A stretch of 64,000 bases of DNA from Promethearchaeota archaeon. Its GTDB lineage: Archaea; Asgardarchaeota; Lokiarchaeia; Sigyniarchaeales; SOKP01. The notes beneath the pieces are model-generated. The model was not told the origin of the DNA and made no database searches. It saw only the letters and a list, made by a program, of their open reading frames with translations. The stretch covers positions 3,076-67,075 of the forward strand of contig JAEOTZ010000001.1 in the NCBI GenBank assembly GCA_016839585.1, read 5' to 3'. The position numbers and the translations under genes are program-made. Shown here piece after piece: positions 42,390 to 61,119 of this stretch; within the stretch, counting starts at the first letter, position 1, and the number at the start of each line of letters is the position of its first letter.

Positions 42390-43586
42390 TTATGACTCTA
42401 GATAATTAATTATCGAAGATATTATCTCAATTAAATCTAAATCAGAGGTAGAACTAAGTTGTTCTATTTTTAATCTTAATTTTCTAATAATAGGCAATTT
42501 ATCTTCTTCAATTTTAGTCGAATATAATAAATTCCTAAACATTTTTAGTGAATTTATATCTTTTTTATCTATTGCTTCACAAATCTCCGTAGAAATGCTC
42601 TCAAACTTTCCACATTTATATAAAATTAAAGCTATATCGTTTTTTTTATATCCCCTTTCATATAGCTTTTCGAAATTACTATAATTGATTTTTCTTATTA
42701 AACTTACAAGTTTAGGATTTAATACAATCATCCTGATAGTTCCTACAATTATTCTTATTATCTCATTATCTTTTCCTAAAATGTATTTATTTATAGTTTT
42801 AGCATAATCAGTTATTATATCAAGTTCATCTTCAAACATATCTTCTTTATATGAAATTTTCGCAAATTCATTGTGAATCTTATTTAACATTGGTATTAAA
42901 TTCATAGGAGATAATTGTGAATTCCTAATCATATCTAAATAATTAAAAATTAGTTCAAAATCGATTTTTTTCCTTTTTTGGGATCTTTCTTTCTCATTAA
43001 TATATAAATCTTCCTCTTCCTCTTCATCAATCATTCTAATGTAGTCACGTTCAATTATATTATTTGCACCTAATTTTTCATATCTTAGAGTGGCTTTTAA
43101 TTGAGCATAAATATTTCCTATTATACTTTCAACAGTTTTTTGTTCAGTTTCATCTAAATAACTATTATGAGCAATTTTATTTCTTAAATCATACAAATCT
43201 TCTAATTTTGATGTAATCCAAACTTCTTTAGGAAAATATTCTTTAAAGATTTCCCAATTGCTACTTATTATAGTTTTTAGATCTATTAAATCCGCGTAAA
43301 ATAGATCAGAATCCCCCCTTATAGATAACCATCTCTTAATTCTCTCTTCTTCTTTTCTATCATTAATTTTATCTTGAATTTTTTTATTCATATTTAGTTT
43401 TTTCCAATAATTTAAACCAAATTTAACCTTAGCTACATTTTCTATAAATAATCTGAAGAAATTCTCAAAAATGAAAAGATTATAATACGCCTCTACCATT
43501 TCTTTTCCTTTAAGGAAAATTTCAGTTGGTATTTCAATTTGAAACTTTTGTTTTAAATTCTTTTTTTTTATTAATTTTGGATTCAT
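42390..43586 (-). CDS. HEPN-domain protein (Swt1-like HEPN N-terminal domain plus unknown C-terminal half)
   Basis: FENFFRLFIENV helix and LRNKIAHN (R-x4-H) at about residue 155. Confidence 0.55.
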   Translation of the reverse strand: MNPKLIKKKNLKQKFQIEIPTEIFLKGKEMVEAYYNLFIFENFFRLFIENVAKVKFGLNYWKKLNMNKKIQDKINDRKEEERIKRWLSIRGDSDLFYADLIDLKTIISSNWEIFKEYFPKEVWITSKLEDLYDLRNKIAHNSYLDETEQKTVESIIGNIYAQLKATLRYEKLGANNIIERDYIRMIDEEEEEDLYINEKERSQKRKKIDFELIFNYLDMIRNSQLSPMNLIPMLNKIHNEFAKISYKEDMFEDELDIITDYAKTINKYILGKDNEIIRIIVGTIRMIVLNPKLVSLIRKINYSNFEKLYERGYKKNDIALILYKCGKFESISTEICEAIDKKDINSLKMFRNLLYSTKIEEDKLPIIRKLRLKIEQLSSTSDLDLIEIISSIINYLES

Positions 43587-43841: not shown

Positions 43842-44261
43842 TTAAAGATAATTAGTTATTTTATTATTAGTTTCTATGTCCTCTACATAGCGAAATGATT
43901 GTGGAGCATTAAAGTTGAGAAATATAGATTTAGGATCTATTGGGTTCTTGAAAAATTTTAGGTTAGAAATTTCTATAGCAAGTCCTTTTTCTTTTTGATT
44001 AAAATATTTGAAAAATTCAGCTTCACCAATCCCAGAAACATCCTTATATTTTTCCCATAATACCGTGGGGTGATCTTCGATAATGATATTTAATAAGAAT
44101 TTAGCTACGATTTTTTTCACTGGTGAGCTTGAATATATGTAAATCTTTTCAATTTTATCAAAATTCTTCTTATTACAAAATGATTTGCGAAACTCATATT
44201 TTTTTCTCCCTTTCTTTATTTCTTCTACATATTTCGGTTTAATTGAAAGTAAAACGTTCAT
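43842..44261 (-). CDS. ASCH (PUA-like) domain protein
   Basis: LSIKPKYVEEIKKGRKKYEFRK is the typical ASCH opening. Its own GGAGG SD lies 6 nt upstream, inside the preceding gene. The start overlaps the upstream stop by 23 nt. Confidence 0.6.
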   Translation of the reverse strand: MNVLLSIKPKYVEEIKKGRKKYEFRKSFCNKKNFDKIEKIYIYSSSPVKKIVAKFLLNIIIEDHPTVLWEKYKDVSGIGEAEFFKYFNQKEKGLAIEISNLKFFKNPIDPKSIFLNFNAPQSFRYVEDIETNNKITNYL

Positions 44262-45762
44262 TAATTCCTCCCTTTTCTTTAATAGATAAATACTTTTGAT
44301 GTTCTATCTCAGTAATCGATTGTGGACGTCCTTGAAGAATATTACTTTTTATCAATTCTTTATACGATATAGGATTTTTAAGATAGAAATGGTGGTTAAA
44401 TAATATTACTGTAATTGGCTTTTTTACTAATTTTTCTATTTCTGAAAGGGAATAAACTGTTCGCTTGCCAACTAAATTGAAAACATACTCTTTATTTGTT
44501 AGATCATATTCAACTTTCTCAACAACACCTAAAGAAACAAGTTCTTTCATATCTTTAGATCGATAGAAAAATACAATATCACCTGGAGCAATTTTTTTTG
44601 TTGAAGAATGAGTTAGATATGTTTTTCTTATCGTATTTCCTTCTATTAAAAATTCATTTAAAACTTCATTTATAGTTAGTTGTCCTCTTCTTGGAAAATC
44701 AGTAAACAAACGATTATGATATTTTGGTCTGATTGGAATTATGTGTTTTTTCACATTTTTCCCATCATAAAAATTAGGAAAATATATTTTTGAAATTTGA
44801 ACTGGTTCTATTGATTGGATCTCATCGTGGGAAATAAATAACTTTTTTACAAATACATCTTCAGGAATCTCAGACCATTCATGTTTAATGATTGCTTCTT
44901 TTTTAAAACCAAAATCTTCAATAAGAGCCACTAAAGGATCATTATCTTTGATAAAATGAGTTAGATATATCTCAGATCTATTATTTTTAAGGGCAAGGTT
45001 AATTGATAATTTAATGAATAACTCGCCAATTTTTTGACCAGTGTAAGAAACAACAATAGTAGCAATTTTTACTCTCTTCTTTTTTGGAAGTTTAGGTATA
45101 GATGCTATTTCCTCATTTTCAAATTTATAGATTAATACGGCTCCAAGCTTATTACCATTTCTATAATAAACCCAACAATTCCTACCATCTCTTGCTTTTT
45201 CATTAAACCAATCGTTAAATCTAGGATATTCTTCTCTCAAAATGTTAAAAATTGGGTCTAATACATTCAGACGAGACATTGATGTTGCTTTTAAAGCGTA
45301 TGGTCGTTTTATTTTTTCTTTAGGGATTTCTTTTTTAAAGAGACTAACCGCATCTAATATTGAGATAATTCTTTCAGAAAGGTCTAATTTTTTCGCTTTC
45401 TTATGTATTCCTATATCTTCTGTTACTAAGAAATTTACTGCATTATGATAAACAGCATATAAGAGATAATTATCTATTACATCATTAACATTTTTTGGCT
45501 TTCCTACAAGAGAAAGAAATTTTGAATTATCAGAAGGGTCGGGAAAATCTTCTAAAAGATTATAAGTCTTAAATTTCGAAAGCGTTATTTGTTTTCTCTT
45601 TTTATCTCGATCTCTATCAATATCTTCAATGGATTTTTGATGGAGGATGATTTTAATGTCTAATTGATTAAAAATTCTCATTAATATCTGTAGATCTTCA
45701 TCTATAATCTTGTTATCTTCTCTCCCAATAATGATATTTGTATCTAATAAAACTCTCATCAA
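44239..45762 (-). CDS. PIN - GNAT acetyltransferase - PUA-like (EVE/ASCH-like) three-domain fusion protein
   Basis: PIN: VLLDTNIII, DVIDNYLL, LVTEDIG. GNAT: IATIVVSYTGQKIGELFIKLSINLAL ... LIEDFGF. C-terminus: GDIVFFYRSKDMKELVSLGVVEKV, a PUA-like pattern. Confidence 0.6.
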   Translation of the reverse strand: MMRVLLDTNIIIGREDNKIIDEDLQILMRIFNQLDIKIILHQKSIEDIDRDRDKKRKQITLSKFKTYNLLEDFPDPSDNSKFLSLVGKPKNVNDVIDNYLLYAVYHNAVNFLVTEDIGIHKKAKKLDLSERIISILDAVSLFKKEIPKEKIKRPYALKATSMSRLNVLDPIFNILREEYPRFNDWFNEKARDGRNCWVYYRNGNKLGAVLIYKFENEEIASIPKLPKKKRVKIATIVVSYTGQKIGELFIKLSINLALKNNRSEIYLTHFIKDNDPLVALIEDFGFKKEAIIKHEWSEIPEDVFVKKLFISHDEIQSIEPVQISKIYFPNFYDGKNVKKHIIPIRPKYHNRLFTDFPRRGQLTINEVLNEFLIEGNTIRKTYLTHSSTKKIAPGDIVFFYRSKDMKELVSLGVVEKVEYDLTNKEYVFNLVGKRTVYSLSEIEKLVKKPITVILFNHHFYLKNPISYKELIKSNILQGRPQSITEIEHQKYLSIKEKGGINERFTFN

Positions 45763-46073: not shown

Positions 46074-46820
46074 TTAAAATTCTTTTCTTGGCTCATAATA
46101 TGTTTTCTCATAATCATAGTATTCAGAAATTTTATCCTTAAATCTAGGATATATTTCTATTAAATATTGGGTAAATTTTTGAAGATCTTCAGTAGAGGGG
46201 ACTTCTTCACGATTTATTATGTCATCTGCAAAGCGTTCTATTTTTTGAAGTAATCTTACATCATTATATTCAATAATTTTACAATAGTTTGTAAGCTCAA
46301 GGCTTTCTTTAAATTCATCAACAGAAGGATCAAGTATATCAGTTACATCAAAATAAAAACGTACTAATCTTTCATATACTTTATCCCAATATTCATAAAA
46401 TTGTTCAATCAACTGGGCATTTTTACCTAAATTCGTGAGAAATGGTTTTACAGGACGTTCGAATAATTTAGACAATAAGATTCTTGCTATAGAAGTATAG
46501 GCAAAAATTATGTCATACATAATTGGTTTCTTTTTTATTGAGTGATATACACCATTCCTTTTCGTATGAAATCTAGCAATATTATCAGTCATTTCTTTTG
46601 TTATATGTTGAGGTGCCTTCTCTCTAAAAATTTCAATTAATTTAGGGAATTTTATGAAATAATCAATATTGAGATATGTTCTTATGCAAAGTTCGACAGC
46701 ATTATCAATGTTAATCATAGCGATATGCAGATCAAATGGAGTCCCTTTTTCCATGTGGATTGTTCCATGTTTGATAAGTTTAATGATGTAATCAACGGGC
46801 TCGAAATCTGAATTACTCAT
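46074..46820 (-). CDS. HEPN-motif protein
   Basis: INIDNAVELCIRTYL helix and KRNGVYHS (R-x4-H). Confidence 0.45.
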   Translation of the reverse strand: MSNSDFEPVDYIIKLIKHGTIHMEKGTPFDLHIAMINIDNAVELCIRTYLNIDYFIKFPKLIEIFREKAPQHITKEMTDNIARFHTKRNGVYHSIKKKPIMYDIIFAYTSIARILLSKLFERPVKPFLTNLGKNAQLIEQFYEYWDKVYERLVRFYFDVTDILDPSVDEFKESLELTNYCKIIEYNDVRLLQKIERFADDIINREEVPSTEDLQKFTQYLIEIYPRFKDKISEYYDYEKTYYEPRKEF

Positions 46821-48153: not shown

Positions 48154-48624
48154 ATGAAAGAATGTTTTAGTATTTACATAGGTAACGATATGGATTGCTT
48201 TTGGGACGAAAGATATGGATGGTCTGTCGTGCATGCCTGCAAACACCCATGCCACTGTTACGCTGTAGGGTATAAGGGGAACCTACCCTCCACTCACCCG
48301 TCTTACTTAATATTTCGTCGAGAGTCCCATTTAGTTTTAAATTTAGTAGATATGGATCAACTGGATGACCGCTTTATGCGCCCTATCATAATGGCATTCT
48401 ATAGTTTCATGGATGAGATGGAAGGGCAAAAAATCCTAATACATTGTAATAGAGGTGAATCACGTGCACCGAGCCTAGCTATCCTCTATTTAGCAAAACG
48501 CAGAAAAAAGATCCCAGATGATTCTTTTGATGCTGCAAAACAATCTCTTAAAAAGATTTATCCTTTATATAATCCTGGACGAGGTTTTAATAAATATTTA
48601 CAGCAATATTGGGATTCTTTATAA
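48154..48624 (+). CDS. Cys-based protein phosphatase (dual-specificity/PTP-like, CX5R)
   Basis: HCNRGESRAPS is the HCX5R(S/T) P-loop. The gene is visibly GC-richer than its flanks. Confidence 0.65.
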   Translation: MKECFSIYIGNDMDCFWDERYGWSVVHACKHPCHCYAVGYKGNLPSTHPSYLIFRRESHLVLNLVDMDQLDDRFMRPIIMAFYSFMDEMEGQKILIHCNRGESRAPSLAILYLAKRRKKIPDDSFDAAKQSLKKIYPLYNPGRGFNKYLQQYWDSL

Positions 48625-48718: not shown

Positions 48719-49687
48719 TCACACCAATAGAGATTTGTAAATATAGCTCAGACTTTCTCGTATGATGGCATAGATTTTTTCTATATACTCAGTATTTATA
48801 TCTATACATTCTCCAATTCGAGATGGATCATATTCCAATTTCTTACATGATTTTTCGTTAATTATACCAGAATTATGAACAATAATATTTCGAATGTAAT
48901 TTGCTTCCCTTAACTCTCTCCAACTCTTAAAATCTCTTTTTAAATTAATATTAAATCTTGATATAATTCTTTTAGCGATTTTATCAATACTTTGATATCC
49001 CCACCAATCCACTTCATTATCGATCATTTTAATTAATAACTCTTCTCTTGTTTGAGAATCAATTATCTCCTTATTAGTAAGATTTTTTGAATTAGACCTT
49101 AGAAGTTCTGGTTTGTATTCATATATTTTCCTAAATAAATCTTTCAGACATGCTTCAAATAAGGAAAATTGATATACTAAAGTCATTTTAGCCAAATGAG
49201 TGATTCTTTTATGCAATTTATCCAAAAAATCGTTACAATTCCAATATATATATTCCCTTTGAGGTAATTTGAGAGTAGTTCTTCTACGTTCTTCATTCGA
49301 CTCAATGCCTTTTAATGATACTGAATAATCTCCTGCAATGATGAACTGATTAAATCCTTGAGATTTTGAATCTTCAATAAAATCCTCTACTTTTTTAAGA
49401 GTTTCTTCGTAACTTAGACAATCTTTGTCATTTTCTAAAATCTCAACAGGAATATATGAATCCCGTTGTCTTTTTTCATTACTTTGCATTGAAGTGAAAA
49501 ATTCCATTAATTCATTTAAATTAGAAGTTTTAGCTTTTTCTAACAATATTTTGTATTTTTCCTTATCTTTTTCTAATGAAATCCAAGCATTCCTTGAAGA
49601 TCTGAATGCATTCATCATATCGGTAAGATAATGGTTAATGATTATATTTAAATCATCCTTCAGAGAATCTCGCATAATCATAATCAC
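48719..49687 (-). CDS. HEPN-motif protein
   Basis: C-terminal domain with FSLFEACLKDLFRKI helix and IRNIIVHNSG (R-x4-H). Confidence 0.5.
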   Translation of the reverse strand: MIMIMRDSLKDDLNIIINHYLTDMMNAFRSSRNAWISLEKDKEKYKILLEKAKTSNLNELMEFFTSMQSNEKRQRDSYIPVEILENDKDCLSYEETLKKVEDFIEDSKSQGFNQFIIAGDYSVSLKGIESNEERRRTTLKLPQREYIYWNCNDFLDKLHKRITHLAKMTLVYQFSLFEACLKDLFRKIYEYKPELLRSNSKNLTNKEIIDSQTREELLIKMIDNEVDWWGYQSIDKIAKRIISRFNINLKRDFKSWRELREANYIRNIIVHNSGIINEKSCKKLEYDPSRIGECIDINTEYIEKIYAIIRESLSYIYKSLLV

Positions 49688-49977: not shown

Positions 49978-51276
49978 TTATTGAGAAATATTTATTATAA
50001 GCTTCTGATCTTTATTTACTCCCTCTTCATCGTGCTTAAATGAGCAGAAAAATTGTATTTTTTTCATTTTAAATTCTTCTGGAAACTTTATCATAATAGG
50101 ATATAAACCTAATGTAACATTATGTTGGATTTTTTTAATACTATATCCAAATACCCATATATCATTTTTCTCTTTTTCTATTTTTTCGGGAGAACTGTAT
50201 TTTACATTGTATTCTTTATGAGTAAATTGTGGTATAGTTAATGATGTGTATGGAAAAAAATCTCTCTCTATTTTTGGTTTTTCTGGTTTTTCAAGCTCTT
50301 CCTTGGATTTTAACTTAAAACCTTTTTCCAATATAGTAAATATTTCAATATTAACATTATTATATGGTTTATTGCCTTTATTTGTTAAAAATAATTCAAT
50401 TTCAATGTATTTCCTATGTTCATTCAATTCTTCATAATATTTTAAAACCTCTTCTTTAAAGTGTTTACGGCTTTTTAGATTAAATGATAATGGTGAAAGA
50501 AGTTTTGATGCGTTTGGTCCTAAACTATTAATCAAATCAGCAACAGTTAACCCTTTTTCTTCTGCTTCTTTAATTGTCATATTTTCAGATATTCCTGATT
50601 TTTCATTATCTTTTAAAGCTATTATCTCTTTTTCTTCCTCTTTCATTAAGTCTGGGAACGCTGGAAATTCCTCAGCAATGAATTCATCCAGGCTAAGCTC
50701 ATTCTCAGTAGATAATTCATACTTGTTATCTTTATTTTTAAAAAGTAGTTTTAAATCAGTTAATTTGCTTTTTCTTGCTGGTTGTGTTTCACTTGGTTTG
50801 AAAATTGTTTTATATTCCTCATCTAACCAAAAAATAGTATTAATTCCTAAAGCATCAGCTTGAAAGTAAGGCGTGTTATCTCCTGTTACAAAATATACTT
50901 CATCATCAGGATTGTTTTCTTTAAAGACGAGGATTTCAGCTATAATCTTGCAGTCAGATTCATTTTCATCTAATATTTCTACCCATTCAGGTTTTAAAGA
51001 ACTCCATTTTGTTGGAAAAAATGAAATATTTAAAGTAATACCTTCTTTAAATTCGACATCCTTTAATTCTCTTAATTTATTCTGTATGTTTCTGGCTTTT
51101 TTTTCGTATCTTTTTAAATTGTCCAACTCCTTATTAACCATATATGATACTACAATTACAATTTTATTATCATCCTGAGTTTCCTCAAATAAATTTCTCC
51201 AATCTATTTCTGTAAAGGTTTTACAGTGCAAAAAAACATTTGTATCAAGAAAAATATATTTAGTCATAATCATCAC
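49978..51276 (-). CDS. PIN-domain protein with long unknown C-terminal region
   Basis: YIFLDTNVFLH, NKELDN, DCKIIAEIL and YFVTGDN (the four acidic positions of PIN), followed by about 270 aa that were not recognised. Confidence 0.55.
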   Translation of the reverse strand: MMIMTKYIFLDTNVFLHCKTFTEIDWRNLFEETQDDNKIVIVVSYMVNKELDNLKRYEKKARNIQNKLRELKDVEFKEGITLNISFFPTKWSSLKPEWVEILDENESDCKIIAEILVFKENNPDDEVYFVTGDNTPYFQADALGINTIFWLDEEYKTIFKPSETQPARKSKLTDLKLLFKNKDNKYELSTENELSLDEFIAEEFPAFPDLMKEEEKEIIALKDNEKSGISENMTIKEAEEKGLTVADLINSLGPNASKLLSPLSFNLKSRKHFKEEVLKYYEELNEHRKYIEIELFLTNKGNKPYNNVNIEIFTILEKGFKLKSKEELEKPEKPKIERDFFPYTSLTIPQFTHKEYNVKYSSPEKIEKEKNDIWVFGYSIKKIQHNVTLGLYPIMIKFPEEFKMKKIQFFCSFKHDEEGVNKDQKLIINISQ

Positions 51277-51571: not shown

Positions 51572-52342
51572 TTAACCTCCTAAAATAGTCTGGTCAGGAA
51601 AATCTTCTATTAGTTTTTTGTCAATACTATAAATGAATTCTGCAATATCTCTATAACAAGACTCTACTATTGATAAATCTATCTCTGGACCACTTAGAGA
51701 ACCTTTTGCACCACTGTGAATTATCTTATTTCTCAGTTTTCTATAGCTTGAGGGTTCATCTGAAAAAATTCTTTGCCATAAAGTGGGAAAAATAGTGGAT
51801 AAATCTATATTTAATAATTGAAACGCACATCTTACAATATCTTTTTCTTGAAAAGATAATTGAATATTTGGGGGCAACAGAGCGTATAATTTTACATTTC
51901 TCAGAAGATCAATATTGTCATAGTTTAATCTTATATTGACTCGTAGTTTTCCTATCCGTTTATTAAACCTTTCTACCACTCCTAACTCATTAAACCCGTT
52001 CTCTCCATAGCGAAGAAATAAATCTTCTAGAGTATTTATATAGGCTATTATCATAAATGCACTTCTTAGATAATCCTCAATTGCAGTTATTAAATTCACA
52101 ATGACATTTTCACATAAAAATGTGAATTTTATTGGATTACTTTCAGAATTTTGAATAATATCTGAATAGATCGAAAATACTCTATTAAAGTTTAAGACAA
52201 AATTAGGAAAAGCTAAAGTGTGTCTATCTTCAATTTTTTCATAGGTATAGAATAAAGATCCTTGTTTATGTTTTAATTCTGTTATTTTTACTATATTATA
52301 GTTTCTAAGAATATCTCGGAATCTATTTTCATCATTAATCAT
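51572..52342 (-). CDS. HEPN-motif protein
   Basis: LITAIEDYLRSAF helix and LRNKIIHSG (R-x4-H). Confidence 0.5.
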   Translation of the reverse strand: MINDENRFRDILRNYNIVKITELKHKQGSLFYTYEKIEDRHTLAFPNFVLNFNRVFSIYSDIIQNSESNPIKFTFLCENVIVNLITAIEDYLRSAFMIIAYINTLEDLFLRYGENGFNELGVVERFNKRIGKLRVNIRLNYDNIDLLRNVKLYALLPPNIQLSFQEKDIVRCAFQLLNIDLSTIFPTLWQRIFSDEPSSYRKLRNKIIHSGAKGSLSGPEIDLSIVESCYRDIAEFIYSIDKKLIEDFPDQTILGG

Positions 52343-52968: not shown

Positions 52969-54435
52969 TTATTTTTCCCCATCTAAATCTTCATATAAAT
53001 CACTAAATTGTTCTAATGCTGTTTCTAAATCTTCTATTATATCTCTCGCAAGAACAACTGGATTTGGTAGATTCTCAAAATCTTCAAGACTCTCATCCTT
53101 AAGCCAAAAAATATCCAAATTTGTACTTTCCCTCTGTATTAATTCATCATAAGTAAAAACTTTAAACCTTTCAGTTTCTTTCCTCTCCCTTCGATTTTTA
53201 GGATAATAACATTTAATAAAATCTTTAAGATCTTCATAATTCATAGGATTTTGTTTTAAAGTAAAGTGCTTATTAGTTCTTAGGTCGTAAATCCAAAGAT
53301 TCTCGCTCCATGGTTCTTCACTTGCAGGTTTTCGATCAAAAAATAAAACATTAGCCTTAACTCCTGATGCATAAAATATGCCTGTAGGAAGTCTTAAGAG
53401 AGTGTGAACATCACATTCGTGAAGTAATTTTCTTCTAACAGTTTCCCCTGCTCCACCTTCAAATAATACATTATCTGGTAATACAATGGCAGCTTTTCCG
53501 TTTATTGCTAAAGTTGTTTTTACATGTTGAAGAAAATTCAGTTGTTTATTCGAGGTTGTTGCCCAGAAGTCAGGTCGTTCATAAACCAGAGATTGTTTAT
53601 CCGCTTTTCCCTCACTATTCATTATAGTAATACTACTTTTTTTACCAAATGGAGGATTAGTTAATACCATTTCAAAACGGTCTCCAGGATCAGCGCTAAG
53701 AGAATCACCTACTTCTATAGGGCTTTCTTCACCCCCGATTCCATGTAGATAAAGATTCATGACACACAGTCTAGCAACACCGTCAACAATATCTTTTCCG
53801 AAAAGAGTGTTAAATTTAAGATTTTTTTTCTGTTCTTTATCTAAATTATAAATTTTAGAAATATAATCATGAGCAGCTAAAAGAAACCCTCCAGTTCCAC
53901 AAGCAGGATCATATATTTTCATTTCGAGTTCAGGTTGCATTACTTCAACAATCGTTTTTATGAGGGATCGTGGTGTAAAGTATTGTCCTGCTCCACTTTT
54001 ACTATCCTCGGCATTTTTTTGTAATAGTCCCTCATAAATATCACCTTTCACATCAATATCCAATCCAACCCATGTTTCTTCATTTATAAGCATAATTAGA
54101 CGTTTGAGCTTAGCCGGATCTTGAATTTTATTCTGTGCTTTGCGAAAAATTATTCCAAGCATCCCCTTTTGCTTGCCAAGTTCTATAAGAATATGACGAT
54201 AATGAACTTCTAATGCATCACCATCCCTTTCGAGCAAGCTTTGCCAATCCAACCCAGGAATTATTATTGAAGATTTGTTAAAAGGAGGTTTTGTTTGTTC
54301 ATCAGCCATTTTTAAGAATATTAGATATGTCAGTTGCTCAACATAATCTCCGTAGCTTACTCCATCATCTCTTAAAACATTGCAATAGTTCCATACTTTA
54401 TCTACTATTATAGAACTTTTATTCAACATACTCAC
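52969..54435 (-). CDS. hsdM: Type I restriction-modification system, N6-adenine DNA methyltransferase subunit
   Basis: HsdM N-terminal domain, DPACGTGGFL (motif I), NPPFGKK (motif IV). Confidence 0.9.
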   Translation of the reverse strand: MSMLNKSSIIVDKVWNYCNVLRDDGVSYGDYVEQLTYLIFLKMADEQTKPPFNKSSIIIPGLDWQSLLERDGDALEVHYRHILIELGKQKGMLGIIFRKAQNKIQDPAKLKRLIMLINEETWVGLDIDVKGDIYEGLLQKNAEDSKSGAGQYFTPRSLIKTIVEVMQPELEMKIYDPACGTGGFLLAAHDYISKIYNLDKEQKKNLKFNTLFGKDIVDGVARLCVMNLYLHGIGGEESPIEVGDSLSADPGDRFEMVLTNPPFGKKSSITIMNSEGKADKQSLVYERPDFWATTSNKQLNFLQHVKTTLAINGKAAIVLPDNVLFEGGAGETVRRKLLHECDVHTLLRLPTGIFYASGVKANVLFFDRKPASEEPWSENLWIYDLRTNKHFTLKQNPMNYEDLKDFIKCYYPKNRRERKETERFKVFTYDELIQRESTNLDIFWLKDESLEDFENLPNPVVLARDIIEDLETALEQFSDLYEDLDGEK

Positions 54436-55141
54436 CTAAATTCTTTTGTTTTGATTCTCGATTTTGGTTTTTTTTTTGAGAAGCCTTTTTATTTAAATTA
54501 TTATTTACAGGATTTTCATTATCCTGTAATTGGGAAATTAAATTTCCTTCAAATGCGGATTTTAAAATGCTTTGGCGTAACTTATCTGATTTTTTAATTA
54601 TTGATTTAAACAAATTCACCCCATAATCTAATTTAGTGAACACTTCTTCAATTTTTTCTACTATAATGCGTTGTTCATTAATAGAAGGTATAGGAATTGG
54701 AATTAGTTTCATTCTAGTCTGATTTAATTTATATCTAGTAGTGCCTGTAATATAATCTCTGTAGTTAAATACATTTAGATAATGAAGTAAAAAGGAATTT
54801 AATAAAACACCTTTTATTGCTTTTAATACATGAGCATGGTTATTTACCCAAGTCTTTCCTCTAATCATATATGCTTTGGGTTTAGATGGATCTAAAAAAG
54901 GAGCTCCATCTTCGCCTAATAATATTAGTTCTTCATCAAATATAAAATCATCAATCCATCCTATTTGTCCAGTCGCACCATAATATGGATAAAGTTCAGT
55001 AATATCTTTTCCAGCGATTCTGTCATTTCTATCAGAGGAATTAATGGGAACTCGTTGACTATCTAGAATCTCAACACAATCTTTTAATTTCATCCATTCC
55101 CAATGAGATGGTAAGTCTGCCAAAGATGTCAATTCAGTCAA
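54419..55141 (-). CDS. hsdS: Type I R-M specificity subunit, half-size (single target-recognition domain)
   Basis: 240 aa. One TRD (WEWMKLKDC...YPYYGATG...) plus one conserved helical region (INEQRIIVEKIEE). Overlaps hsdR by 4 nt and hsdM by 17 nt. Confidence 0.8.
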   Translation of the reverse strand: MTELTSLADLPSHWEWMKLKDCVEILDSQRVPINSSDRNDRIAGKDITELYPYYGATGQIGWIDDFIFDEELILLGEDGAPFLDPSKPKAYMIRGKTWVNNHAHVLKAIKGVLLNSFLLHYLNVFNYRDYITGTTRYKLNQTRMKLIPIPIPSINEQRIIVEKIEEVFTKLDYGVNLFKSIIKKSDKLRQSILKSAFEGNLISQLQDNENPVNNNLNKKASQKKNQNRESKQKNLGEYVE

Positions 55142-57891
55142 ACAGAAAGTACCTCATTTAATTCGTCTAAAATATAAATAAGTTCTTGCTTAAAAAGTTG
55201 ATAAGCTCTAAATGGTCCACCCTTCTCATAGAACGGAGCTAATTCAAAATCATCCATTTCAATTTTTAGACTACTAGTAATATGATCTTTTATCATATTT
55301 AGCCATTCTAATTGTTCAGATGTGAAATTTTTACCCATACTTAGTTGAATATCCAACCATTCATTAAAGTTCCTATTAATCGTTTCATAATAAGGTTCAA
55401 GAATTTCACTTTCACCTAAAGTAAATCGAATGATTGATATTATATTTGTTAACAATTTTTGCGGTCCGGCATTTCTTACTTTTGATTTTTCCAATTGTTC
55501 ATAAGCTTGCCATAACTGTTCAGTTGTAAAATTGTAAGGGGGTTTTTCGATTGATTCACTTAATTCCTTAATTTGTTCATAAGTAAGATGTCTTTTACCA
55601 TATGGTTGATTAAAAATGATTTGTAGAGCAGTAATCTCATCCTTATTCTCTTCAATAAATTTTTTAAATGTATCTATAAAGGTTTGAGCTTTCTCTTTAG
55701 CTTGAGGGTCCCAGCTAGCAAAAATTGTTTTATCTATACTTATTTTATCCAGCACTTGTTCATTTTTCTTCTTTATTTCAATTAAGAAATTTCTTAAATT
55801 AGGATTATCAAAAGGTTTACATGCGGATTCTTTCAATTCATTCGAAACTTCTTCTTTTTGTTCTTCTGAAGGAGTTTCAGTTTGAAATTTTTCCTTTGCC
55901 CTTTCATTTATGATATCAGGATCGAGAGCATCAAATATATTATTAGTCATTTCCTGTAATGTAATTCCTCCTGAAATTTCCTCAATTTTTTCTCGGTCAT
56001 TTGATTCTAGTGTGCGATCTAGCCTTGCGAGACGATTTGAAAGAGTCAAAATTGTATCTTCGTCTCGTACACCAACAGCTACTTGTTGTAGTAATTTATC
56101 AAAAGGAACACTTGGTTTTCGTTCTAGAGGTCTTGAGTCAGTTTTATCGCCTTCACACACTCCAACAGCATCTACAATTACAAAATGGGTTTTATTTTTT
56201 ACGTTAGGAGTAACAGCTTGTAAATCTGTAGAGGATATAACCCGAGTTCCTCTACCTTTCATTTGTTCGAAATATACTCTTGATTTAACATTTCTCATAA
56301 ATAAAAGGCATTCTACGGGTTTAATATCTGTACCAGTAGAAATCATATCTACAGTTACAACAATTCGAGGGTTATAAGAGTTTCGGAATAATGCAATTAA
56401 ATTTTCAGGTTTTTCACCAGTGGTTTTATAAGTAATTTTTTCGCAAAATTTGTTTCCTTTTCCAAAGATTTCTCGTGTAATTCTTACAATGTCTTCTGCA
56501 TGTGAATCATCTTTTGCAAAAATAATTGTTTTAGGAACAGTATTTCTTCCCGGAAAAATTTGCGTAAACAAATTATCTTTAAATGTTCTTATGACTGTCC
56601 TTATTTGGTCAACTGCCACAACATCTCTATCTAATTGTTTTGCTTCATATTCATAGTCATCATCTAATTGTTCCCATCTAACGCTTCGTGTTAATTTGTC
56701 TCTTTTATCAATGTAATATCCTGCTTCGATTCTACTACCTTTTTCTGTGATTTCCGTTTGTATTCTGAACACGTCATAACCCACATTAATTCCATCTGCT
56801 ACAGCTCTTTCATGGCTATATTCCATTACTAAATTTTGATTAAAGAATCCAAGAGTCTGTTTTGAGGGGGTGGCGGTTAATCCAATAATAAAAGCATCAA
56901 AATATTCCAGAACTTGACGCCATAAGTTATATATCGAACGATGACACTCATCAGTAATTATAAAATCAAATGTTTCAATAGGTATATTAGGATTATAGCT
57001 TATTTCTTTAGGCTTATCATCCTTAGGAGCTATTTCATACAACGACTTTTCTTCAAGTTCTTCATCAATCTCAGGTTCATTTTTTAACATGGAATAAAGT
57101 CGTTGAATTGTAGTAATACAGACTCGACTTACGGGATCAAACACGTTTGAGGTTAGATGCTGGATATTGTAAAGTTCTGTAAATTTTCTTCCATCATCAG
57201 GTGTAATATACTGTTCGAATTCTCTTTTTGTTTGTCTTGCTAAATTATTCCTATCTACAAGAAATAGAACTCGTTTCGCATTAGCAAACTTAATTAGTCT
57301 ATATACAAAACTCACTGATGTAAAAGTTTTTCCACTTCCGGTTGCCATTTGGATTAATGATTTTGGTTCATTTTGAGCTAGAGATTTTTCAAGATTCTTT
57401 ATAGCTTTAATCTGAGGATCCCATAATCTTTCTTCAATAAGAGTGGGCAATTCTCTAAGTCTAGCTCTTAAAGTTTCATATTTTTTAGCCCATTTATATA
57501 AAGTTTCAGGGGTGTGAAATGAAAATACCCTTCTACTTCGATGATCTGGGTCCCTCATATCTCTGAAAAAAGTCTCAGTTCCCGTACTTTCATAACCAAA
57601 AGGGAGTGGTACTCCAATTTTAGCATAATTTTCGGGAACTCCATGCAGATATTTATCAGTTTGTATTTCCACACCACTTAATGTAGTTCCTTCTGGTTTT
57701 GCTTCAACAGCACCCGCAAGCTTTCGGTCAATAAAAAGTAAATAATCAGCAAATCCAGTCTCCAGTGGGAATTCTCTTACAGCGATTCCTAAAGAAGCTC
57801 CTAAATTAATTTGATTATAATCCTGAACAACCCAATCCGCTTGTTCTAATAAATGATCAATTTTTTTCCGCGCGCTTTCTTCAGGTCTCAT
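55138..57891 (-). CDS. hsdR: Type I restriction enzyme R subunit (EcoEI-like C-terminal domain)
   Basis: N-terminal PD-(D/E)xK-like ADYLLFIDRKLAGAVEAK, Walker A MATGSGKTFT, DEAH-type ITDECHRS, helicase C-terminal motifs. Confidence 0.9.
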   Translation of the reverse strand: MRPEESARKKIDHLLEQADWVVQDYNQINLGASLGIAVREFPLETGFADYLLFIDRKLAGAVEAKPEGTTLSGVEIQTDKYLHGVPENYAKIGVPLPFGYESTGTETFFRDMRDPDHRSRRVFSFHTPETLYKWAKKYETLRARLRELPTLIEERLWDPQIKAIKNLEKSLAQNEPKSLIQMATGSGKTFTSVSFVYRLIKFANAKRVLFLVDRNNLARQTKREFEQYITPDDGRKFTELYNIQHLTSNVFDPVSRVCITTIQRLYSMLKNEPEIDEELEEKSLYEIAPKDDKPKEISYNPNIPIETFDFIITDECHRSIYNLWRQVLEYFDAFIIGLTATPSKQTLGFFNQNLVMEYSHERAVADGINVGYDVFRIQTEITEKGSRIEAGYYIDKRDKLTRSVRWEQLDDDYEYEAKQLDRDVVAVDQIRTVIRTFKDNLFTQIFPGRNTVPKTIIFAKDDSHAEDIVRITREIFGKGNKFCEKITYKTTGEKPENLIALFRNSYNPRIVVTVDMISTGTDIKPVECLLFMRNVKSRVYFEQMKGRGTRVISSTDLQAVTPNVKNKTHFVIVDAVGVCEGDKTDSRPLERKPSVPFDKLLQQVAVGVRDEDTILTLSNRLARLDRTLESNDREKIEEISGGITLQEMTNNIFDALDPDIINERAKEKFQTETPSEEQKEEVSNELKESACKPFDNPNLRNFLIEIKKKNEQVLDKISIDKTIFASWDPQAKEKAQTFIDTFKKFIEENKDEITALQIIFNQPYGKRHLTYEQIKELSESIEKPPYNFTTEQLWQAYEQLEKSKVRNAGPQKLLTNIISIIRFTLGESEILEPYYETINRNFNEWLDIQLSMGKNFTSEQLEWLNMIKDHITSSLKIEMDDFELAPFYEKGGPFRAYQLFKQELIYILDELNEVLSV

Positions 57892-58055: not shown

Positions 58056-59078
58056 TTACTGGGAGTTATTTTGCTCAAGTTCTAAATATTCACCTAATGT
58101 GATATCTGGATTATTTTTATTCTTCCAAACCCTTGGTCCGCTATAATGTCCCCCAGAAACGAAAGCTGCGGCTCCTGAAGATGACCTAAATTCTTGATCT
58201 TCAGTTAGAAGATAGTTTCGTCCCTCTGTTTGCCTTAGGAGTATTCTTTCTTCAATTAATTTGGCTCTTCTTTCAAAAATTTTTTTTTTTTGCTTAGGAA
58301 AAGTATCCAGGTAATCTTCTACTATGATCGAGTCTTTAAGTACAACAAAACCCGTATCAGCACGGTACATAATGGCATTAGCTCCCCTTTCTGAACAAAT
58401 AAAGTAGTTTTTTTCATCCCCTTCATCAACTTTTATTTTTTCTTTTAATATAGAAATTCCAAGTTGTTCCAGAATGATTTTAATTTTAATAAAAAAATCA
58501 TATAAAATGTCTTTATCAATTAAATTTAATTTACCTGAATAGTTTTCAGTCTTGTTTAGAATCCGAAAATTATCCGATTTTCTTGCCTCTTGAATAATTT
58601 TTGCTTCAATTGCTTTTCTTAATGAATCTCCTATTCCCGCACCGCCTAGCTTTAGTGATTTTGAGAAGAAGAAGATTTCCGAAAGAAATTCCCATTCTTC
58701 ATTTAGAATTGTTTCTTCATCTATTTCCTTATAACTTCCAAAATGTTGTTTTATCCTTCCTTTAAAATTCCCTGTCTCACCAATATAGGCAATACCCTCT
58801 TTCACTCCTTCTATATCTTCTCCGAATAATATATAAACTCCATCGATATTTTCTGTTCTATTAACTATTTCGCCAACTATATCTTTCTTTTTCTCTTCTT
58901 CTATCTCAAAATCTAATTTCATATTATTTCTTAATAAATCTATGTAAAATTGACGATTTATTTTTATAACTTGTCCATCCCATCCATCAATGTCTAAAAA
59001 TTGAAGGCGATCATCTGAGAATGGTAAGTATGAACTAATTCTTGTGGAAATATTAATATCTGGAAACATAATTTTCAC
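58056..59078 (-). CDS. GIY-YIG nuclease domain protein with DUF4357-like C-terminal domain
   Basis: GVYILFG...IAYIGETGNFKGRIKQH (GIY-YIG); C-terminal FRSSSGAAAFVSGGHYSGPRVWKN (DUF4357-type). Confidence 0.6.
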   Translation of the reverse strand: MKIMFPDINISTRISSYLPFSDDRLQFLDIDGWDGQVIKINRQFYIDLLRNNMKLDFEIEEEKKKDIVGEIVNRTENIDGVYILFGEDIEGVKEGIAYIGETGNFKGRIKQHFGSYKEIDEETILNEEWEFLSEIFFFSKSLKLGGAGIGDSLRKAIEAKIIQEARKSDNFRILNKTENYSGKLNLIDKDILYDFFIKIKIILEQLGISILKEKIKVDEGDEKNYFICSERGANAIMYRADTGFVVLKDSIIVEDYLDTFPKQKKKIFERRAKLIEERILLRQTEGRNYLLTEDQEFRSSSGAAAFVSGGHYSGPRVWKNKNNPDITLGEYLELEQNNSQ

Positions 59079-59258: not shown

Positions 59259-59798
59259 TTATGGATTTTTATCTTTATCATAAGCCCATATAGCTAGATC
59301 AACTTCTTGTGGATGCCATCCTAACTTATTAGCTAATTCTTTAATCTTTTTTAGATATTCTAAATATTGATTTATTGTATATGAGTCTCTTTCTTCAGAA
59401 AAAAGTTGCCTCCAAACCCTAAAGTCAATAACAGCATATTTTTCAGGAAAGCAAAGTGCAAGAATTGCTGATGCAATTCTAACATTAATTCCCCGAGGAA
59501 CCATAAGTGTTTTAATTTTAAGATAAGTTTCATAATCTCTATTGGTATGGGTGATCTTAAAAGCTAGTTTTGTAAAATTTTGAGCAATTTCATTAGTAAT
59601 TTCGATAAATCTCTTTTCTTTTTGCCTACCATATTGAGTTAATAATTTCCATTGTAGTATTTTATCAAGTTCTTTTAATTTCAAATAAAAAGGATCCCTT
59701 TCTTTCATAAGGCTTTTCAAAAATATCTTAATTCTTTGAGTTTTCTCATAATCCTCGGCCTTATGGCGATACTCCTTAATATCTTTTATTTCAATCAT
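59259..59798 (-). CDS. Hypothetical protein, possibly HhH / OGG-fold-like
   Basis: GINVRIASAILALCFPEKYAVIDFRVW resembles the helix-hairpin-helix segment of small OGG-fold proteins. Pattern match only. Confidence 0.3.
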   Translation of the reverse strand: MIEIKDIKEYRHKAEDYEKTQRIKIFLKSLMKERDPFYLKLKELDKILQWKLLTQYGRQKEKRFIEITNEIAQNFTKLAFKITHTNRDYETYLKIKTLMVPRGINVRIASAILALCFPEKYAVIDFRVWRQLFSEERDSYTINQYLEYLKKIKELANKLGWHPQEVDLAIWAYDKDKNP

Positions 59799-60021: not shown

Positions 60022-61119
60022 TTATAGGTTATTTTTAATGTAATAGTGAATACAAATAACTTTATGTTCTTTTTTTTCAATTCTAGGTTTCAGCAAAATT
60101 TTATGATTCCTAATTTTACTAGTATAAACTGAACTGTTCACCATTTCAAATCTATCAGGCATCTGATCTAAAATTGCAGCTATATTTTGAGCGGCTAATA
60201 TTGTCCTATCTCTGGCTAAAATATAAATAGAACTTATACCTTCCTCTTCACACTTGAAAACCCATTGAATATAAGGATCAAGATTTAGATCTCCAGTTTT
60301 AGTAAATACTTTACTATACCTACCAATCATAACAATGCTTATTTTGATGTTAGTACCACGAAAAGTTGGATTTATATCTTCTCCTGCTTTTCTATATGCA
60401 AATTCCTTAATTTTTTCAAAAAAAGATGTTGGTTCTTTAAAATATTCAATATTTGGAGGTTCTGGATAATATTTTAATCCATAATCCTTTATTTCCTTTA
60501 ATAAAATTCTTGTAAATACACCTCTCTCAGTTAATACTTCCAAAATATTGATATTTTCCTTTAATTTCTCATCTTCATCCAATTTAGGTGATAAATGATA
60601 ATCAATGAAATAATTTAATTTAGATTTGTTCTGATTAAAAATTAAATTCTTAACAAACTGCCAATCAATTGAATTCATTAGGTGAGGTTCAATGTAACGT
60701 CGGGAATTAGGTATTAATATATCTTTTATGCTAAACATTGATGCTCGTACAAAGTTTTCATCCTGATTTTTTTTATCTTTTAATACTACTATTACTTTAT
60801 CTTCTTTATGTTCAACTCTTTCCTTCTCAAAACTGAAAGGATTGATAAATTTTATAGAGGTTTTAAAAGGTATTAAACCTTCACATTCCTTATTTATTTC
60901 CTTTCTGTAAGTATTCATCTTAGATTGAATATCTTTAGAGATATGTATTTTTTTAAATTTTTTACCTGTAAAAGAAAACCACCTTGCTAAGATTGATTCC
61001 CATTTTTCTACTTTTTCTGGGTGTGTCAGGAAATAAATTAGTAAAATTGCTAAAACACCTGTAATTGACCAGGAAGCTATTAAAAGATTTATTAAATCTA
61101 TGAATTCATTAAATATCAT
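60022..61119 (-). CDS. N-terminally membrane-anchored hypothetical protein
   Basis: One TM (LLIASWSITGVLAILLIYFL) plus a 330-aa unrecognised domain. Overlaps the upstream small ORF by 11 nt. Confidence 0.4.
   Translation of the reverse strand: MIFNEFIDLINLLIASWSITGVLAILLIYFLTHPEKVEKWESILARWFSFTGKKFKKIHISKDIQSKMNTYRKEINKECEGLIPFKTSIKFINPFSFEKERVEHKEDKVIVVLKDKKNQDENFVRASMFSIKDILIPNSRRYIEPHLMNSIDWQFVKNLIFNQNKSKLNYFIDYHLSPKLDEDEKLKENINILEVLTERGVFTRILLKEIKDYGLKYYPEPPNIEYFKEPTSFFEKIKEFAYRKAGEDINPTFRGTNIKISIVMIGRYSKVFTKTGDLNLDPYIQWVFKCEEEGISSIYILARDRTILAAQNIAAILDQMPDRFEMVNSSVYTSKIRNHKILLKPRIEKKEHKVICIHYYIKNNL

Follow-up and report, generated by a model that had tools for sequence, protein, structure and literature searches.

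Operons of the (PIN)-GNAT-EVE type were described in 2020 by Bell, Wolf and Koonin (BMC Biol 18:159, PMC7641849), who reported that they nearly always encode an ASCH protein and that they adjoin type I restriction-modification (R-M) systems. Their survey included archaeal examples as well as PIN-less forms located in prophages, the modules being without experimental characterisation at that time (PMC7641849). ASCH domains were also found fused to HsdS and to XRE-type helix-turn-helix (HTH) domains, and the ASCH protein of the operon was considered to probably bind modified DNA (PMC7641849). In the account given by Bell et al., the first description is credited to Iyer et al. in 2013 (NAR 41:7635), to whom the proposal of DNA base acetylation is attributed (PMC7641849). 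Here, a gene pair of this kind is described from a Promethearchaeota archaeon (contig JAEOTZ010000001.1, positions 3,076 to 67,075 of the forward strand); this whole stretch of 64,000 nucleotides (nt) is referred to as the window. Gene A (44239..45759, minus strand) encodes a PIN-GNAT-PUA-like (EVE/ASCH-type) fusion protein of 506 amino acids (aa), counted from the ATG at 45759, and gene B (43842..44261, minus strand) encodes a stand-alone ASCH protein of 139 aa.

Both proteins match the PADLOC models of the system PDC-M11. Residues 2-506 of A align with positions 1-500 of the 501 positions of PDC-M11A (PDLC04422; E value 8.4e-145), while B, which adjoins A, matches PDC-M11B (PDLC04424) over its full length (E 4.7e-48). 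The two window genes therefore resemble this system in being adjacent and in matching full length, with the reservation that the PDC series consists of candidates which owe their nomination to genomic associations. Within the literature searched, PDC-M11 was mentioned only where the defence systems of one E. coli O157:H7 strain are listed. A further record, that of Escherichia phage PhiR47_2 (GenBank PV340567.1), contains a PIN-less pair labelled GevT toxin and GevA antitoxin. Because the PDC-M11 models, the description of Bell et al. and the GevT/GevA record all match, the pair is to be regarded as already known, and it is almost certainly a member of the '(PIN)-GNAT-EVE + ASCH' / PDC-M11 family. 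A preliminary description of the window, made from its sequence, had stated that no described system with such an architecture was known; this statement is refuted by Bell et al. (PMC7641849), by the PADLOC models and by PV340567.1.

Comparison of the window pair with the operons of Bell et al. shows that they are alike in the three-domain protein, the ASCH partner and the link to type I R-M and defence genes. They differ in that the AAA_17 ATPase is absent from the window and in that the C-terminal domain of A is structurally closer to the ASCH protein of Zymomonas mobilis (ZmASCH) than to canonical EVE domains. In the GevT/GevA pair, too, the gene of a GNAT-PUA-like protein precedes that of an ASCH protein, and the two genes overlap by 23 nt with a near-identical overlap sequence (ATGAAAGTTTTATTATCCATTAA). 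In contrast to A, GevT is without a PIN domain, aligning to residues 155-503 of A with 27% identity, and it is prophage-borne between cI and kil instead of chromosomal and close to R-M genes.

A longer open reading frame (ORF) exists for gene A (44239..45762, minus strand), giving 507 aa from a TTG start one codon upstream of the ATG. This was the reading adopted in the preliminary description and its coordinates stand, but its start does not: the N-terminus is MR[IV]L in all 31 aligned homologues of A, so the ATG at 45759 is the real start and the protein has 506 aa. Genes A and B share a dual-coding overlap of 23 nt (44239..44261, minus strand; ATGAACGTTTTACTTTCAATTAA), which ends gene A with its last seven codons and the TAA stop and, read in the +1 frame, supplies B with its first seven codons. 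A GGAGG motif resembling a Shine-Dalgarno (SD) sequence is located 5 nt upstream of the ATG of B (44267..44271, minus strand), and its bases double as codons for a conserved Gly-Gly in the C-terminal tail of A. Both the overlap and this motif had been noticed before and are present where they had been placed.

The overlap is a near-invariant property of the family. Its length is exactly 23 nt in 70 of the 78 pairs in which it was measurable, including the window pair, the E. coli phage pair and the pair of the Methanothermobacter prophage psiM100, and this geometry is kept across the archaeal-bacterial divide, from Asgard archaea to an E. coli phage. The consensus of the overlap is ATGAACGTTTTACTNTCNATTAA, with free variation only at positions 15 and 18, these being third codon positions in the frame of B and first codon positions in the frame of A. 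The sequence GG[ATG]GG occurs ahead of the ATG of B in 55 of the 70 pairs, and a looser SD-like motif is found there in 61 of them. A programmed +1 frameshift yielding an A-B fusion was considered and rejected, as no recognisable +1 slippery site was seen on inspection of the overlap. Three loci (L003, L015 and L039) have ATA in place of the conserved start ATG of B, with the nearest upstream GTG being followed by an in-frame stop; in these, B may start at ATA or may depend fully on reinitiation after A.

The protein encoded by A consists of three domains on one polypeptide: a predicted PIN-type nuclease domain that keeps its acidic residues, a GNAT acetyltransferase domain and a PUA barrel resembling ZmASCH and EVE proteins. 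Domain families were checked with Pfam on window A and on 32 full-length homologues, and an AlphaFold2 (AF2) model of A was built on an alignment of homologues (mean predicted local distance difference test score, pLDDT, of 83). The PIN-type domain comprises approximately aa 1-145 (45325..45759, minus strand). Pfam PIN_3 matches residues 3-117 of window A (E 0.011, 16.9 bits, under the cut-off of 27 bits) and is found in 16 of the 32 homologues, with a best E of 8.7e-7. Residues D6, N8, R13, E14, D96, T113 and D115 of this domain are invariant in the alignment, and the model shows an alpha/beta/alpha fold. No significant match between this region and the PIN_4 protein encoded in the window was obtained with hhalign, and a search of BFVD returned mainly GNAT proteins and one poor PIN match.

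The GNAT domain of A (approximately aa 155-310; 44830..45297, minus strand) is recognised by Pfam Acetyltransf_1 at residues 169-286 (26 bits, over the cut-off of 20.7), and its motif A reads V237..G241-x-K243-I-G245-E246-L247. Foldseek analysis against the PDB identified the N-terminal acetyltransferases Naa30, Naa40 and Ard1 as well as PaiA as structural relatives of this domain, and the profile of the A family matches Naa50 (E 5.9e-4). The C-terminal PUA-like barrel (approximately aa 326-506; 44242..44784, minus strand) gives a match to Pfam EVE (PF01878) which is below the cut-off in window A (E 0.11), while 14 of the 32 homologues match with a best E of 1e-5. The top Foldseek matches for the C-terminal 180 aa or so are the ZmASCH structures 5guq, 5y6b and 5y6c (template modelling score, TM, of 0.74-0.79 on the target), with the EVE structures 2gbs and 1zce ranking lower (E 2e-4, compared with 2e-7 for ZmASCH). 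The alpha1-beta2 loop of this barrel (residues 352-377, window positions approximately 44629-44706) is strongly conserved, with F352, T353, D354, R358, Q360, E365, F370, E373, G374 and N375 as its conserved residues; the model is of low confidence there (pLDDT 56-71). It may form an interface or a substrate-binding loop.

The AF2 model of B has a pLDDT of 94 and its first Foldseek match is again ZmASCH (TM 0.82-0.85, 24-26% identity), with Pfam ASCH giving a weak match below the cut-off (E 0.11). A profile made from 27 homologues of B finds ZmASCH at an E of 1.2e-17, so that B is homologous in sequence to a protein of known crystal structure. ZmASCH is at the same time the best solved match for the C-terminal domain of A, although, compared with B, it belongs to a larger HTH-containing protein. 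Its chain is named 'helix-turn-helix domain-containing protein' in the PDB, which matches the HTH-ASCH partners of alphaproteobacterial operons described by Bell et al. The preliminary description had assigned PIN, GNAT and PUA-like domains to the large ORF and an ASCH domain to the small one. The former assignments are upheld by Pfam on A and its 32 homologues, by the AF2 model and Foldseek, and by the invariant acidic residues; the latter agrees with the confident model of B, its Foldseek match and the profile match to ZmASCH.

A database search returned 876 homologues of B, and a copy with 100% identity to it is present in NCBI. Residues S6, K20, E23, R25, Y43, Q121 and F123 of B are invariant and K49 and S122 nearly so; the ASCH motif GxKxxExR appears as G18-R-K20-K-Y-E23-F-R25, with G18 nearly invariant. 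The isolated ZmASCH domain has been reported to bind single-stranded DNA and RNA in vitro and to cleave single-stranded RNA (ssRNA) at pyrimidine-A steps in a Mg-dependent manner, with Y47, K53 and S128 contributing as judged by mutagenesis (Kim et al. 2017, PMC5615036). These three residues align with Y43, K49 and S122 of B. More distant Foldseek matches of B include EOLA1 (5y7d, rank 23) and YqfB (9kyh, rank 25, TM 0.52-0.67), and the N-terminal domain of McrB (6n0s) and the ASCH domain of TRIP4 in structures with double-stranded DNA (dsDNA; 8yfi, 9kyl) are also among its structural matches.

Residues S6, K20, E23 and R25 of B are the same, and have the same spacing, as S7, K21, E24 and R26 of human EOLA1. 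EOLA1 belongs to the TRIP4-like clade as a stand-alone ASCH protein and has been reported to remove the acetyl group from free N4-acetylcytidine (ac4C); it uses K21, E24 and R26, with S7 facing the pocket, while YqfB uses K21, T24 and R26 (bioRxiv 10.64898/2026.08.01.741249). B shares its fold with both of these proteins and the residue constellation with EOLA1, but the structural likeness is distant and a corresponding activity of B is putative. With the register of A and B set by the beta1-alpha1-beta2 pattern of both models and a conserved Gly, the PUA-like domain of A is found to have P342 in place of the Ser, and T376, K379 and Y381 in place of the K-E-R triad. The two barrels have in common a [FY]xYxS..K strand and a PQS motif, corresponding to residues of the nucleic-acid-binding cleft of ZmASCH, and although hhalign of the C-terminal domain of A against B is weak (P 0.025), these motifs are aligned by it. 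At this value, the two domains are not claimed to be recent duplicates, their likeness being that of a common fold and two motifs. As the triad is present in B and absent in A, the barrel of A resembles a reader and the pocket of B has residues of hydrolase type. The triad is no proof of catalysis by B, because K-E-R is common to the whole TRIP4-like clade. The difference between the two barrels is the strongest argument for a putative eraser role of B, yet it is weak evidence, the triad being a signature of that clade, including TRIP4 and ZmASCH.

These residues are central to one alternative explanation, already raised in the preliminary description, namely that the pair handles a reversible acetyl mark. 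The GNAT domain of A would write the mark (ac4C in RNA or DNA, or acetylated aminoacyl-tRNA), the PUA-like domain of A would read it and B would erase it as an amidohydrolase, with the ratio of A to B deciding the outcome. The invariant S6/K20/E23/R25 of B with the spacing of EOLA1, the triad-less PUA-like domain of A, which suits a division into a reader in A and an eraser in B, and the presence of YqfB among the distant structural matches of B are all consistent with this. Furthermore, prokaryotic ASCH genes of the TRIP4 clade have been reported to occur within R-M operons with endoRNases as neighbours, and also next to acetyltransferases (bioRxiv 10.64898/2026.08.01.741249). However, K-E-R also marks the dsDNA-bound TRIP4 and ZmASCH, which is reported to be an RNA-binding RNase, and it is not diagnostic of a deacetylase; according to the same preprint, another group saw no deacetylation of ac4C with murine EOLA1 (bioRxiv 10.64898/2026.08.01.741249). 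In addition, the nearest GNAT relatives of A are protein N-terminal acetyltransferases, with TmcA/NAT10 not among the top matches listed, and the PIN domain is left without a role. A reversible mark is regarded as improbable. A little less probable again is a self-contained acetylation switch, in which GNAT would mark RNA or DNA, the triad-less PUA-like domain would read the mark and steer the PIN domain, B would erase it as a deacetylase, and the overlap would fix the ratio of writer to eraser. If true, enzymatically reversible base acetylation would here be seen for the first time in an immune or toxin-antidote system, one present within type I R-M operons and extending from Asgard archaea to E. 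coli phages.

The family is large. At least 796 full-length homologues of A are present in a database clustered at 90%, and the family forms 957 clusters at 50% identity (E<=1e-30). Where named, the closest relatives of A (77-98% identity) are proteins from metagenome-assembled genomes of Promethearchaeota (Asgard). Eighty related loci, taken from one genome per species, were surveyed. They span Asgard archaea, methanogens, anaerobic methanotrophic archaea (ANME), Thermoplasmatota, Altiarchaeota and DPANN archaea (Woesearchaeota, Micrarchaeota), with the bacterial loci belonging to Chloroflexi, Syntrophia-type Deltaproteobacteria, Omnitrophota and Fibrobacterota. The two genes had been expected to occur together across genomes, and this is borne out: B is directly downstream of A in 73 of the 80 loci, and five others are cut off by the end of the contig, either within A or at A. 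In L052 (11582-11950) and L064 (11587-11955), a divergent ASCH gene whose product is 34-36% identical to B lies just downstream of A on the opposite strand. An ASCH partner is found in every related locus with room for one, and this recurrence, like the size of the family, goes well beyond what chance would give.

All-against-all clustering of the flanking ORFs of these loci showed conservation for none but A and B; the next commonest real gene clusters around the pair were HsdM, HsdS and HsdR. The AAA_17 ATPase was considered as a third component and set aside, no such recurrent neighbour cluster being found in the 80 loci. One protein of the representative library (P0306, 653 aa) joins A (residues 1-484) to a B-like ASCH domain (residues 519-639; 38% identity, E 2e-22). 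This is either a natural A-B fusion or an assembly frameshift, and an indel or an assembly error explains it better than +1 frameshifting.

Members of the family are also found on mobile elements. Homologues occur on 33 plasmids, where partners are annotated as 'helix-turn-helix domain-containing', and only four contigs were recovered from IMG/VR with the patterns used. The PIN-less pair, in copies of 99% identity or more, was found in 275 (about 5%) of the 5426 complete E. coli genomes, many of the carriers being O157:H7, and is labelled in RefSeq only as a hypothetical protein and an ASCH domain-containing protein. In the lambdoid Escherichia phage PhiR47_2 (L081), this pair is located between cI and kil. 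In lambda, this interval is the place of rexAB.

Several individual loci deserve mention. In psiM100 (L082, NC_002628.3 8233-10078), ORFD encodes a full-length PIN-GNAT-EVE protein (39% identity) with a 23-nt overlap with ORF5 (ASCH). Most of ORFD is inside the annotated 'inserted fragment IFa', and ORF5 is annotated as similar to ORF5 of psiM2. IFa is presumably missing from phage psiM2, and the ASCH gene may predate the insertion of the effector. On the Halalkaliarchaeum plasmid pAArc-CO (L083, NZ_CP087722.1 115692-117638), A is annotated as two ORFs, for a PIN domain protein and a hypothetical protein, as would be expected of a disrupted effector, whereas its ASCH neighbour is intact; this haloarchaeal megaplasmid locus adjoins type I-B CRISPR-Cas genes. 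In three loci of Methanothrix/Methanotrichaceae (L077, L078 and L080), the match to A begins at residue 106, with most of the PIN domain apparently gone, and these copies may represent a stage between the forms with and without PIN.

This distribution bears on a further possibility, that the pair has a housekeeping function in RNA modification or processing, for example as a tRNA or rRNA acetyltransferase with a helper subunit, and has no role in conflict. PUA-like domains are common in RNA-modifying enzymes, and some homologues of A carry the JGI label 'rRNA-processing protein FCF1', both of which would be in line with such a function. It is nevertheless very improbable given the patchy spread of the pair over unrelated archaeal and bacterial phyla, its presence on plasmids and prophages, in defence islands and in R-M operons, and its occurrence in only 5% of E. 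coli genomes.

Iterated profile searches placed hsd genes no further than 10 kb from the pair in 26 of the 80 loci, co-directional with it in 24 of these 26; among the 31 loci having at least 5 kb on both sides, hsd genes are present in 13. The pair is inside an hsd operon in eight loci, with M-A-B-S-R as the commonest order. In four loci, A overlaps the end of an hsd gene, which is hsdM in L014, L035 and L048 and hsdS in L038. In the window, a type I R-M operon (52969..57891) is located 7.2 kb upstream on the same strand as the pair; it is reported as context, and membership in the module is not claimed for it.

A DNA-directed accessory of the R-M system, acting in a manner like type IV restriction, is a serious rival explanation for this linkage, although on the whole an unlikely one. 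The PUA-like domains would read the state of the DNA (N6-methyladenine made by HsdM, or hypermodified bases of phages), A would cut or acetylate DNA, and B would bind modified DNA or regulate expression, so that the pair would add to restriction and would not poison translation. Acetylation of DNA would be in keeping with what Iyer et al. proposed according to Bell et al. The co-directional position inside hsd operons in eight loci, with A overlapping the end of hsdM or hsdS in four, and the location of hsdRSM on the strand of the pair in the window support this explanation. So do the fusions of ASCH to HsdS and XRE-type HTH domains and the probable binding of modified DNA by ASCH (PMC7641849), the HTH-named partners on plasmids together with the like-named ZmASCH chain, and the McrB N-terminal domain and dsDNA-bound TRIP4 ASCH among the matches of B. 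On the other hand, two thirds of the loci are without hsd genes within 10 kb and the prophage pair stands alone beside cI, so R-M is not required. PIN domains of the VapC/PIN_3-like kind are mostly RNases. ZmASCH, too, points to RNA, as it prefers single strands and cleaves ssRNA (PMC5615036).

The explanation favoured as a whole, with slightly more than even confidence, is that the pair is a toxin-antidote-type defence module which accompanies R-M and leans towards RNA. That the module serves in defence or as a toxin and antidote is judged probable, whereas the specific RNA-directed mechanism set out below is tentative and rather doubtful. In general terms, a toxin-antidote or defence pair had already been suggested in the preliminary description, and this fits both the defence-island character of the window and the PDC-M11 matches of the two proteins. 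The fixed overlap would couple the translation of B to that of A, so that B would be made only alongside A. The two proteins may act as a complex, which is supported by the existence of the A-B fusion P0306.

A would be the effector of the toxin-antidote-type module. Its PUA-like reader would dock it on a modified nucleic acid, with tRNA or another RNA favoured, and there the PIN domain would cut and/or the GNAT domain would acetylate, upon which translation would stop. B would restrain A until infection or loss of R-M function tips the balance, and to this end it might bind A, compete with it for a shared ligand or take off an acyl mark. PIN toxins are usually RNases, and GNAT toxins acetylate the alpha-amino group of aminoacyl-tRNA. 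An RNA target is favoured because PIN toxins are mostly RNases, because ZmASCH prefers single strands and cuts ssRNA, and because the GNAT relatives acetylate alpha-amino groups.

Type II GNAT toxins consist of a single domain of about 170 aa, and an RHH/DUF1778 antitoxin is encoded upstream of them. The window pair is like these toxin-antitoxin systems (TacAT, AtaRT, ItaRT and KacAT) in combining a GNAT enzyme with a small partner in a two-gene operon and in that acetylation is the presumed toxic chemistry. It differs in that the GNAT is the middle domain (approximately aa 155-310) of a 506-aa protein and in that the partner is a downstream ASCH barrel. Toxins of the TacT, AtaT, ItaT and KacT type were absent from the top 50 structural matches of A, and RHH/DUF1778 was not matched in Pfam.

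A second comparison can be made with PrrC, a latent effector targeting translation which is encoded, co-directionally, inside the EcoprrI type Ic R-M operon and follows a logic of back-up defence. By analogy with PrrC in EcoprrI, the module may be a toxin-antidote or abortive-infection back-up riding with type I R-M. The pair occupies a comparable position in the hsd operon in eight loci, but the likeness is one of analogy only, without kinship of sequence or fold. PrrC is an ABC-ATPase/HEPN-type nuclease restrained by the R-M complex itself, and it is without a dedicated small partner.

A number of points weigh against a toxin-antidote-type module directed at RNA. In the literature searched, there was no experimental paper, biochemistry or phenotype for any member of the family, nor a paper behind the names GevT and GevA, which are labels of a GenBank annotation. 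As regards the effector domains, the PIN match of window A itself falls under the Pfam threshold, no PIN domain is among the top 50 Foldseek matches in the PDB for the A model, and a PIN sub-profile searched against PDB sequences gave chance-level matches only (USP8, PRKRIP1) and no PIN protein; motif A of the GNAT domain terminates in Leu and not in Gly or Ala. B follows the presumed toxin in gene order and is joined to it in the single chain of P0306, neither of which is typical of labile antitoxins of type II. For the tight linkage to type I R-M, a DNA target is as good an explanation as an RNA target or a better one, and the same holds for the ASCH-HsdS and ASCH-HTH fusions (PMC7641849) and the TRIP4-dsDNA structures 8yfi and 9kyl. 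Finally, the AAA_17 ATPase, reported as a frequent neighbour, is not among the recurrent neighbour clusters of the 80 loci.

The window is a defence island, in agreement with the published description of such operons. Along the minus strand, the gene order is hsdR, hsdS, hsdM, a HEPN gene, a PIN_4 gene, three ORFs without a family match, A, B and a Swt1-HEPN gene. The R-M operon encodes HsdR (917 aa; 55138-57891, minus strand; Pfam EcoEI_R_C/ResIII), HsdS (240 aa; 54419-55141, minus strand), which is apparently of half size with a single Methylase_S match, and HsdM (488 aa; 52969-54435, minus strand; N6_Mtase/HsdM_N). These genes are followed by those of a RiboL-PSP-type HEPN protein (51572-52342, minus strand) and a PIN_4 protein of 432 aa (49978-51276, minus strand), both identified with Pfam. 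The ORFs at 46074-46820 and 48719-49687 are without a family match and show R-x4-H-like motifs by eye. Directly downstream of B is the gene of a protein of 398 aa with a Pfam-supported Swt1-type N-terminal HEPN domain (42390-43586, minus strand), which matches PADLOC PDC-M34B (E 6e-30).

Just upstream of hsdR, a GIY-YIG/DUF4357 protein (58056-59078, minus strand) matches PADLOC PDC-S14 (E 2e-45). Further features are a HerA/FtsK-like ATPase with a C-terminal zinc ribbon and weak PADLOC HerA matches (61614-63374, minus strand), likewise upstream of the R-M operon, and, inside the island, a dual-specificity-phosphatase-like protein (48154-48624, plus strand; DSPc E 4e-7, below the cut-off). The ORFs beside the HerA-like ATPase (60022-61119 and 59259-59798) are without a family match, and this region may constitute a further defence module. 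Over 40-52 kb of the window, the GC content drops only slightly, and no tRNA gene marking the boundary of the island was found in the window.

The architecture of the pair, its partner gene and its association with R-M were already known, and the value of the locus as a discovery is therefore small. Its use lies in drawing attention to a module that is widely spread among archaea, bacteria, plasmids and prophages and forms about 1,000 clusters at 50% identity. What is added here is the near-invariant 23-nt overlap, the A-B fusion, the insertion into hsd operons, the identification of a crystallised homologue of B, and the presence of the triad in B and not in A. The E. coli prophage version, present in 5% of complete genomes, is a tractable form for direct work on the mechanism.

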